Of a DNA stretch of 28,148 bases, positions 27,001 through 28,148 are shown piece by piece. Made by a program: the position numbers. Source of the DNA: a virus; the UHGV virus genome UHGV-0040697; one strand, 5' to 3'. Position 1 is the first letter of the stretch. Each line of letters begins with the position of its first letter.

Positions 27001-28148
27001 AGGCTTTACATGTTTTGATGTGGTGGGACGTGTGAGCGCAGTGTTGATGGGATAATTCTTTGAATTACAAGCGGATTCTTATAATTCGTAATGCGAAGGT
27101 CGTAGGTTCGACTCCTATTATCGGCACCATCTTTTCTCGTAAAATCATCAAGTTACTATTGCAGTATTTTGCTTTGTTCAACACTAATGTGCAATTTTGC
27201 GCGTTGTAGGTGTGGCAAAATTGTGGCAAAGCTAATTGGTCAGCATTTGCATCATTACGCTAAACAAACTACTTCCTTATAAACGTAATGTGTTGACCTT
27301 ATCGATGCGTTGCATGAAAGACAGTTTAGTGATGAAAAATCTTATAAATTAACAGCTTAAATACATTATCCGATAGAGCTAAGTGCCAGAAAGGGACACT
27401 CAGGTTACATAACAATGAGTGATACAGTTCACGTAGTGAAGGTACTATGCCTAGGTGTTTGATTACACTTTGATCATTGATGATACGCTCATGAAGGTAT
27501 TACTTTCCTGTAATGAGCAGGTAGGTAACGATGTCGAACTAAATGAATTTATAGTAAACTTTGCAACAAGAGAACAAGGGAGTATGAGGGGTTATGGCTA
27601 CTGCAGAGCAGATCAAAGCTTTATTGAAAAGCCACGTTGATCGTGATGATCAGCGTTTCTTTTCTATTGCTTTGCAGGTGGCAGCTAAGGAAGCAAGGCA
27701 AGGTCATCATAAGCTTGCTAATGATATAAAAAACTTAGTTGATAAAAATCAGAAAACAACGAGTTCTGTAGGTTTAGTTGAAAAACGACTTACACCATTT
27801 GTTAAGCAGCCTGATGGTGATCTTAAGGGGTTACTTGAGCAAACGAACAAGCCAGTACATCTTCAAGATCTGGTGATTTCTGGAAGCGTTAGGGAAAGAT
27901 TGAATCAGGTTCTGCTTGAACAAAAACAGAAAGATAAACTTTCTGAGTTTGGGCTTATTCCAAGAAGAAAAATTCTTTTCACTGGTCCTCCCGGTACTGG
28001 TAAGACAATGTCCGCATCAGTCATTGCTACAGAGTTAAAGCTACCACTTTATACAGTCGTCTTAGATAATCTAATCACTCGCTATATGGGTTGACCTGCC
28101 CCCACGATTAGATACAACACTCAGTTAGTAACGTCGGAATCTTCATTC

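Follow-up and report, generated by a model that had tools for sequence, protein, structure and literature searches.

The window analysed here is the whole of a 28,148-nucleotide stretch of DNA catalogued as virus genome UHGV-0040697. It comprises the entire contig QRHT01000043.1 of assembly GCA_003470915.1, which ends 57 nt into an insertion sequence (IS). Toward this end the window carries the gtr genes of a prophage, a partial copy of the tRNA-Thr gene thrW, a short arm of island DNA and the front part of an AAA+ ATPase gene, which is cut by the IS (Table 1). The terminus of a second, inverted copy of the IS lies at the opposite end of the window.

Table 1. Positions of the features discussed in the text (window coordinates).
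Feature	Position	Strand	Basis or remark
Inverted ISSen4-like terminus, second IS copy	1..55	.	abuts prophage DNA from position 56
Acyl_transf_3 gene, 349 aa	22600–23649	−	O-antigen-modifying prophage cargo
Type-specific gtr, 413 aa	24368–25609	−	ORF list; Pfam GT_STM0557_N
gtrB	25606–26523	−	ORF list; Pfam Glycos_transf_2
gtrA	26520–26882	−	ORF list; Pfam GtrA_DPMS_TM
thrW 3' part, 47-nt copy; att core between gtr prophage and island	27084..27130	+	100% identity to thrW of FAM21845 (L003) and I4 (L004)
Island arm, ~100 bp directly 3' of thrW	27131..27229	+	common to thrW islands with different cargo
Direct TGTGGCAA octamers, 11 bp apart	27211–27218 and 27222–27229		~80 bp 3' of thrW
ietA upstream region, specific to the ietAS version of the island	27230..27593	+	100% identity, 33 genomes with intact ietAS
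ietA stub ORF	27594..28094	+	ATG start, 166 aa, motif FTGPPGTGKT
ietA codons 1–166	27594..28091	+	N-terminal helical domain and start of AAA+ module; Walker A GPPGTGKT at residues 131–138
IS3-family ISSen4-like terminus, end 3' of the transposase gene	28092..28148	.	contig ends inside

Identity of the truncated gene and of its partner

The initial annotation described a 166-residue frame with an FTGPPGTGKT motif in AT-rich DNA, read it as an IS-truncated AAA+ ATPase gene and placed its end exactly where a terminal inverted repeat begins, and all of this is borne out. The ORF is present, the GC content over 27100–27999 is 0.36–0.40, Walker A is kept, and intact copies of the gene encode 328 amino acids. 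The stop codon TGA is made of the first three bases of the IS, which begins at 28092. Intact alleles read ...TAT ATG GGT GAA ACT GCA GCT... at this point and the window reads ...TAT ATG GGT TGA CCT GCC CCC ACG...; in a megablast search of 5,426 complete E. coli genomes the match to the intact alleles ends at 28091 in all 33 matching genomes. The stub product is identical to residues 1–166 of WP_001460375.1, and the 166-aa protein itself is held in RefSeq as WP_250143179.1. A simple promoter scan found no sigma-70 consensus site upstream of ietA, and the terminator-like matches of the same scan fall within coding sequence or the prophage arm. No Rfam match was found in 26500–28148.

By profile and pairwise comparison, the 166-codon frame represents the first half of ietA, which encodes the ATPase of the IetAS toxin–antitoxin and anti-phage pair. 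Residues 1–166 of the stub align with positions 1–158 of the 330-position PADLOC IetA profile (E=5e-30), and the intact 328-aa allele matches the same profile with E=5.5e-77. BLASTP against the ATPase of the Ti plasmid, represented here by a 214,233-bp pTi record that has C58-series protein accessions and is distinct from the published pTiC58 record, gives 46% identity over all 166 residues (E=4e-50), and the intact E. coli IetA is ~50% identical to this Ti-plasmid IetA over 99% of its length. A chance ORF is excluded by the PADLOC match and by the annotated gene that the 33 genomes have with the same nucleotide sequence (100% identity).

The initial annotation had named two observations that would count against a truncated accessory gene, a genuinely short protein and a core housekeeping ATPase, and the homologues speak against both. 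The closest 120 relatives in a large protein collection are 321–368 aa long, with 98–100% coverage, and none of them ends near residue 166, and a naturally short protein is rejected on this ground. A housekeeping AAA ATPase of the FtsH or CDC48 type is likewise rejected, as the DNA at 27131–28091 occurs in only 33 of the 5,426 complete E. coli genomes, mostly at 100% identity and always in a mobile-element context. In the homology search with intact IetA the query's own cluster was missing, the best match having 74% identity, and such a search is not able to expose C-terminal fragments. In the exact look-up, the IetA and IetS sequences are listed under one ‘cluster 1’ with an S8 protease as its representative, an arrangement that can hide close relatives. 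A 163-aa ‘partial’ protein (P0129) was considered as the C-terminal half with a Gly codon duplicated and was rejected, P0129 being an N-terminal partial.

In every intact copy examined that has the identical 5' DNA, a gene for an 829-aa protein follows the 328-aa ietA after 8 nt, and the two genes are probably co-transcribed. The 829-aa protein matches the PADLOC IetS profile (2.9e-34) and Pfam Peptidase_S8 (4.3e-54), and it aligns along its whole length with the protease of the Ti plasmid at 35% identity (E=6e-155). The Agrobacterium Ti plasmids have the same order, a 328-aa ATPase gene and then an 836-aa S8 protease gene. From these matches the missing partner is identified as the S8 protease IetS. 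The partners, which the initial annotation had stated to be out of sight, are indeed not visible in the window, whose contig ends in the IS, and IetS is named from the intact copies; the search with the 166-aa fragment and the look at the neighbourhoods of its homologues, both recommended there, gave the IetA match and the adjoining S8 protease, and the accessory or defence island presumed there carries ietA of IetAS.

The locus also decays in another strain, the toxin gene included: in 2013C-4991 (L001 ~10459–12947) a 1-nt deletion frameshifts ietS near codon 60, with ietA intact, and the RefSeq annotation of this ietS is a 692-aa product only.

The cut leaves Walker A in the fragment and removes what lies past residue 166 of intact IetA, that is, Walker B (VYFFDE, residues 185–190), sensor-1 (ATN, residues 230–232), the paired arginines of the second region of homology (RR, residues 243–244) and the helical lid. 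The Pfam AAA profile aligns with the stub over positions 1–40 of 131 only; the complete AAA+ module is absent from the window copy and present in the intact allele of other genomes. In intact IetA this module (residues ~105–314) aligns to the D2 domain of CDC48/p97 with E=2.7e-43, and on the evidence of its sequence the IetA ATPase is of the classical AAA clade. Since Walker B, sensor-1, the arginine fingers and the lid are missing, ATPase function is taken to be lost and the stub is almost certainly inactive. It ends inside the core αβ fold, and such a partial domain is unlikely to fold. The word ‘truncated’ holds for the reading frame; the 3' part of ietA and ietS may be intact beyond the IS.

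The thrW site and the neighbouring prophage

The att core that had been proposed to lie before 27130 is a 47-nt stretch that exactly repeats the 3' part of thrW, and the DNA beyond it starts at 27130/27131. ARAGORN finds no complete tRNA in the window. What the initial annotation called attR is the junction of an SfII-like serotype-converting prophage with the DNA behind thrW. The supposition that this DNA belongs to a second island at the same tRNA gene is supported by strains FAM21845 (L003) and I4 (L004), where it stands directly behind an intact thrW: the order is proB–proA–thrW, one base, and then island DNA, with ietA–ietS–higA–traJ/trbJ/trbL remnants–IS1 after thrW. In FAM21845 the intact thrW occupies 19924–19999, the DNA of the island starts at 20000, and another 47-nt copy of thrW is found at 34636–34682. 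The island thus measures ~14.7 kb between the 47-nt thrW repeats, and K-12-like CP4-6 genes lie beyond the distal repeat. A tyrosine integrase (Phage_integrase, E=1.5e-26) adjoins the distal thrW copy. This integrase and ietAS may belong to one element, with IS1 copies and unrelated genes between them. The window has the proximal boundary of the island only, and no such integrase gene.

The island arm next to thrW is shared by many E. coli genomes that match the window only to ~27229 and then diverge, ECCHD184 (L012) among them. The pair of TGTGGCAA octamers in the arm occurs in every locus that has this arm. An equivalent pair with the same 11-bp spacing is located in FAM21845 at 34567/34578 (34567–34585), ~60 bp before the distal thrW copy and beside the integrase. 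The pairs probably are arm-type integrase binding sites.

Tandem occupancy of tRNA-Thr loci, which had been put forward in general terms, is seen among the 33 genomes. The match starts at the thrW 3' part in 17 of them (15 of these 17 have a tRNA-Thr annotation under the match). Fifteen genomes have a prophage-type arm upstream of the island, with the match running from window position ~26959 or, in one case, from gtrA. In the remaining genome a P4-family-primase element is joined through an 18-nt core. Altogether, a prophage or satellite stands between thrW and the island in 16 of the 33 genomes. Strain 300081 (L013) has the layout of the window with the system intact: a type-specific gtr gene, gtrB, gtrA, the thrW remnant, ietA (328 aa), ietS (829 aa) and higA. 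The satellite-type junction is that of HeN100, whose identity to the window starts at 27113, and its core is therefore the last 18 nt of thrW only. The element between thrW and the ietAS island of HeN100 (L002 1–9000) contains a P4-family primase, an Icd-like protein and an antirepressor.

The ietAS position may be filled with other genes. In ECCHD184 (L012 14684–19640) it is taken by a gene for an FRG-domain protein, which corresponds to PADLOC PDC-S15 (1.7e-97), and a HamB-type Hachiman helicase (E=0), with no hamA annotated alongside, and then comes IS1. The cargo found there points to interchangeable defence cargo just inside the thrW arm. The gene thrW is among the most frequently targeted tDNAs of E. 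coli, and the Gtr-carrying SHI-O island also resides there (PMC7545054).

On the other side of the att core, the 9 kb that precede it are 98.6% identical to Shigella phage SfII. By their Pfam matches the gtr genes are O-antigen modification cargo at the att-proximal end of this SfII-like prophage. The DNA of the type-specific gtr gene and of the acyltransferase gene is very AT-rich, with a GC content of 0.26–0.34. Two further loci, L006 and L007, have the same IS-disrupted ietA allele next to a 506-aa type-specific gene, without the acyltransferase. Strain 2013C-4991 (L001 2603–8286) carries a related prophage with the att-proximal arm of the window from ~26959, and at the gtr position it has a DEAD/DEAH helicase, hypothetical proteins and a SMEK-domain protein; these prophage-end genes look like variable moron or defence cargo.

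The insertion sequence and the fate of the locus

From 28092 onward the window shares 100% or 98.4% identity with the ends of annotated ISSen4 copies (‘IS3-like element ISSen4 family’) of 371 E. coli genomes. The complete ISSen4 copy of E. coli C starts with TGACCTGCCCCC, as does the window at 28092, and is flanked by a 4-bp GGTA duplication; a frameshifted transposase is seen at this copy. For the insertion in ietA, the two transposase ORFs, the second inverted repeat and any target-site duplication would fall beyond the contig. Window positions 1–55 are the reverse complement of 28092–28146. As the two ends of ISSen4 differ from each other in sequence, two inverted IS copies are needed at the contig ends, and the 28-kb window is one IS-to-IS segment. 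The left copy lies upstream of the methylase and terminase genes of the SfII-like prophage and interrupts it, and the prophage is therefore also IS-disrupted or rearranged.

The contig ends in a repeat, and a chimeric contig end with an intact gene in the real genome could give the same picture. Of the six places retrieved by an exact-product look-up, three (L008–L010) were dropped as contig-edge partials of probably intact genes; their last base, one past 28091, is the G that the intact gene has there, which counts in favour of an artefact. However, the identical ietA–IS junction occurs in three assemblies from different samples and pipelines (the NCBI isolate assembly GCA_003470915.1 and, as metagenome contigs, ENA ERZ28667913 and ENA ERZ27255630), the contig of L007 reads 139 nt into the IS, all identical to ISSen4, and RefSeq holds the 166-aa protein. 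An assembly artefact is accordingly extremely improbable. L008, L009 and L010, which are Logan/ENA contigs of different samples, and two similar places have in common a break point at the site of the IS insertion. The break point common to L008–L010 arises in part from selection by the exact-product look-up, and mixed alleles in these samples are a possible cause.

The locus is best explained, with high probability, as an ietA gene of a thrW island that was cut by an ISSen4-like IS after an SfII-like prophage had entered the site, and which now is a dead IetAS remnant. The DNA at 27131–28091 would be the thrW-proximal end of an integrative genomic island with the two-gene ietAS module as its first cargo. 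The serotype-converting prophage would later have entered the same tRNA gene, leaving the 47-nt thrW remnant before the island, and the IS3-family element would then have inserted after ietA codon 166 and supplied the stop codon. The product of the stub would retain the helical N-domain and Walker A, and it would be expected neither to hydrolyze ATP nor to form a normal AAA+ ring. The module as a whole would be dead.

IetS is the toxic effector of the system, and IetA is the antitoxin or regulator, which restrains IetS until phage proteins trigger abortive infection (PMC13069673, PMC5006074, bioRxiv 10.1101/2022.08.27.505566). Because IetA is reportedly needed to tolerate IetS, ietS has presumably been deleted, rearranged away or silenced by the insertion in the window strain; a tolerated knockout of the antitoxin gene would lead one to expect a partner that is absent, broken or unexpressed.

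Given the second, inverted IS copy, an inversion or deletion between the copies and a simple polar insertion are equally plausible, and each of the two has a probability a little below one half. Under a simple insertion, the IS would separate codon 166 from codon 167, and behind it the 3' half of ietA would still be present, with ietS complete but silenced by polarity. ISSen4 does insert simply elsewhere, with 4-bp duplications, and the short distance between the two genes, with their probable co-transcription, means that an IS upstream could silence ietS. On the other hand, constructs with an inactivated ietA were unobtainable (PMC13069673), which speaks against an expressed ietS in a cell without IetA, and the inverted second copy nearby makes a rearrangement plausible. 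The far junction of a simple insertion was predicted to read ...CAGGTCA-GGGT-GAAACTGCAGC..., and this junction (the other ISSen4 end ...GGGGAGCAGGTCA, then GGGT and GAAACTGCAGC) had no match in metagenome and genome contigs; the left junction, used as a control, was also absent from them, which makes the search uninformative. The other course of events, in which an IS-mediated deletion or inversion between ISSen4 copies removed or moved the 3' half of ietA and ietS and left the 5' stump at thrW, draws on the same terminus being present in inverted orientation at both contig ends, with at least two copies flanking the 28-kb segment. The tolerated knockout of the antitoxin would in addition be explained if the toxin gene were lost (PMC13069673, PMC5006074), and the frameshift of ietS in 2013C-4991 is a case of decay of the locus elsewhere. 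Against this, the outer flanks of both IS copies lie outside the window.

A quite different reading gives the 166-aa product a function of its own, for example as an N-domain that binds and neutralizes IetS or as a decoy. The 5' part has undergone no further decay and is 100% identical to the intact alleles, the same allele is found beside two different prophage variants in three samples, and the first ~100 residues show conservation with the IetA of the Ti plasmid and might form an interaction domain. Zero divergence is, however, also expected from a recent insertion. The stop codon comes from the IS and not from the gene, the 120 closest family members are all full length, and the frame ends within the ATPase core, and a functional stub is thus very unlikely. 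Equally improbable is the related proposal that ietS is intact beyond the IS and is tolerated because the N-terminal IetA fragment binds and restrains the protease. What speaks for it is the undecayed 5' sequence and the occurrence of the allele in three samples. If true, it would map the antitoxin function to the IetA N-domain, separate from ATP hydrolysis, which would then be needed for the phage-triggered release only.

For the preferred explanation, that of a dead remnant, the stub is suitably labelled ‘ietA, IS-disrupted pseudogene of an IetAS defence/toxin–antitoxin module’ and not a stand-alone AAA ATPase, and IetAS is not to be scored as present in defence-system counts of the window strain. 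The locus provides an example of tandem thrW occupancy, where a serotype-converting prophage is stacked on a defence-carrying island, and the ietA::IS allele exemplifies the IS-driven erosion of defence cargo. The biological question that it raises is how the cell tolerates the disruption of a reported antitoxin gene.

Relation to known systems

The system, the thrW hotspot and the IS, a common one, were all previously known, and what the window has is a pseudogene left over from that system. IetAS was reportedly recognized as an anti-phage system by Gao et al. in 2020. The IetAS of Bacillus cereus m1293 acts by abortive infection, its trigger being the SPbeta protein YosG (bioRxiv 10.1101/2022.08.27.505566), and ietAS of E. 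coli ECOR52 was cloned, tested against phages and combined with other defences (bioRxiv 10.1101/2022.08.21.504612). Constructs with a mutated ietA were unobtainable in the study that calls the mechanism by which IetAS counters phages unknown (PMC13069673). Both intact E. coli proteins from the thrW island match the IetA and IetS models strongly, whereas the window has half of one gene only; the ECOR52 and thrW alleles are likened here by system.

The ietAS genes of pTiC58 are a plasmid-stabilizing toxin–antitoxin system, with the subtilisin-like protease IetS as the toxin and the AAA-ATPase IetA as the antitoxin, according to Yamamoto et al. (2009, J Bacteriol 191:4656) as cited in PMC5006074 and PMC13069673. 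The intact E. coli pair is alike in its 328-aa AAA+ ATPase followed by an S8 protease of ~830 aa. The E. coli module is chromosomal and located in a thrW island, unlike the plasmid-borne module of Agrobacterium, and the window copy is cut at codon 166 with its partner not visible.

The sgiAT genes of Salmonella Genomic Island 1 (SGI1) are a verified IetAS-type toxin–antitoxin system, which promotes maintenance of the island (PMC5006074). As in the case of the thrW ietAS of E. coli, the SgiA/SgiT pair is of the IetAS type and resides on a chromosomal integrative element. SGI1 itself differs from the thrW island, and the two are likened here by type. By analogy, ietAS plausibly promotes maintenance of the thrW island as sgiAT does for SGI1.

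A three-gene variant, ietHAS (Liu-DS4), includes an SNF2 helicase (PMC13069673). It shares the core of ATPase and S8 protease with the E. coli ietAS, but the intact thrW copies have no helicase gene.

Among proteins of solved structure the best relatives of IetA are the D2 domains of CDC48/p97/VCP, with which it shares Walker A and B, sensor-1 and the arginines of the second region of homology. IetA, in contrast to these, combines one ATPase module with a helical N-domain of ~100 aa, has a protease gene as its partner, and is accessory, as its restriction to 33 of 5,426 genomes illustrates. The IS resembles ISSen4 of the IS3 family, the window being identical at 28092–28148 and at 1–55 to the terminus of annotated ISSen4 copies; the window contains 55–57 nt of the element only, without the transposase genes and the other end.
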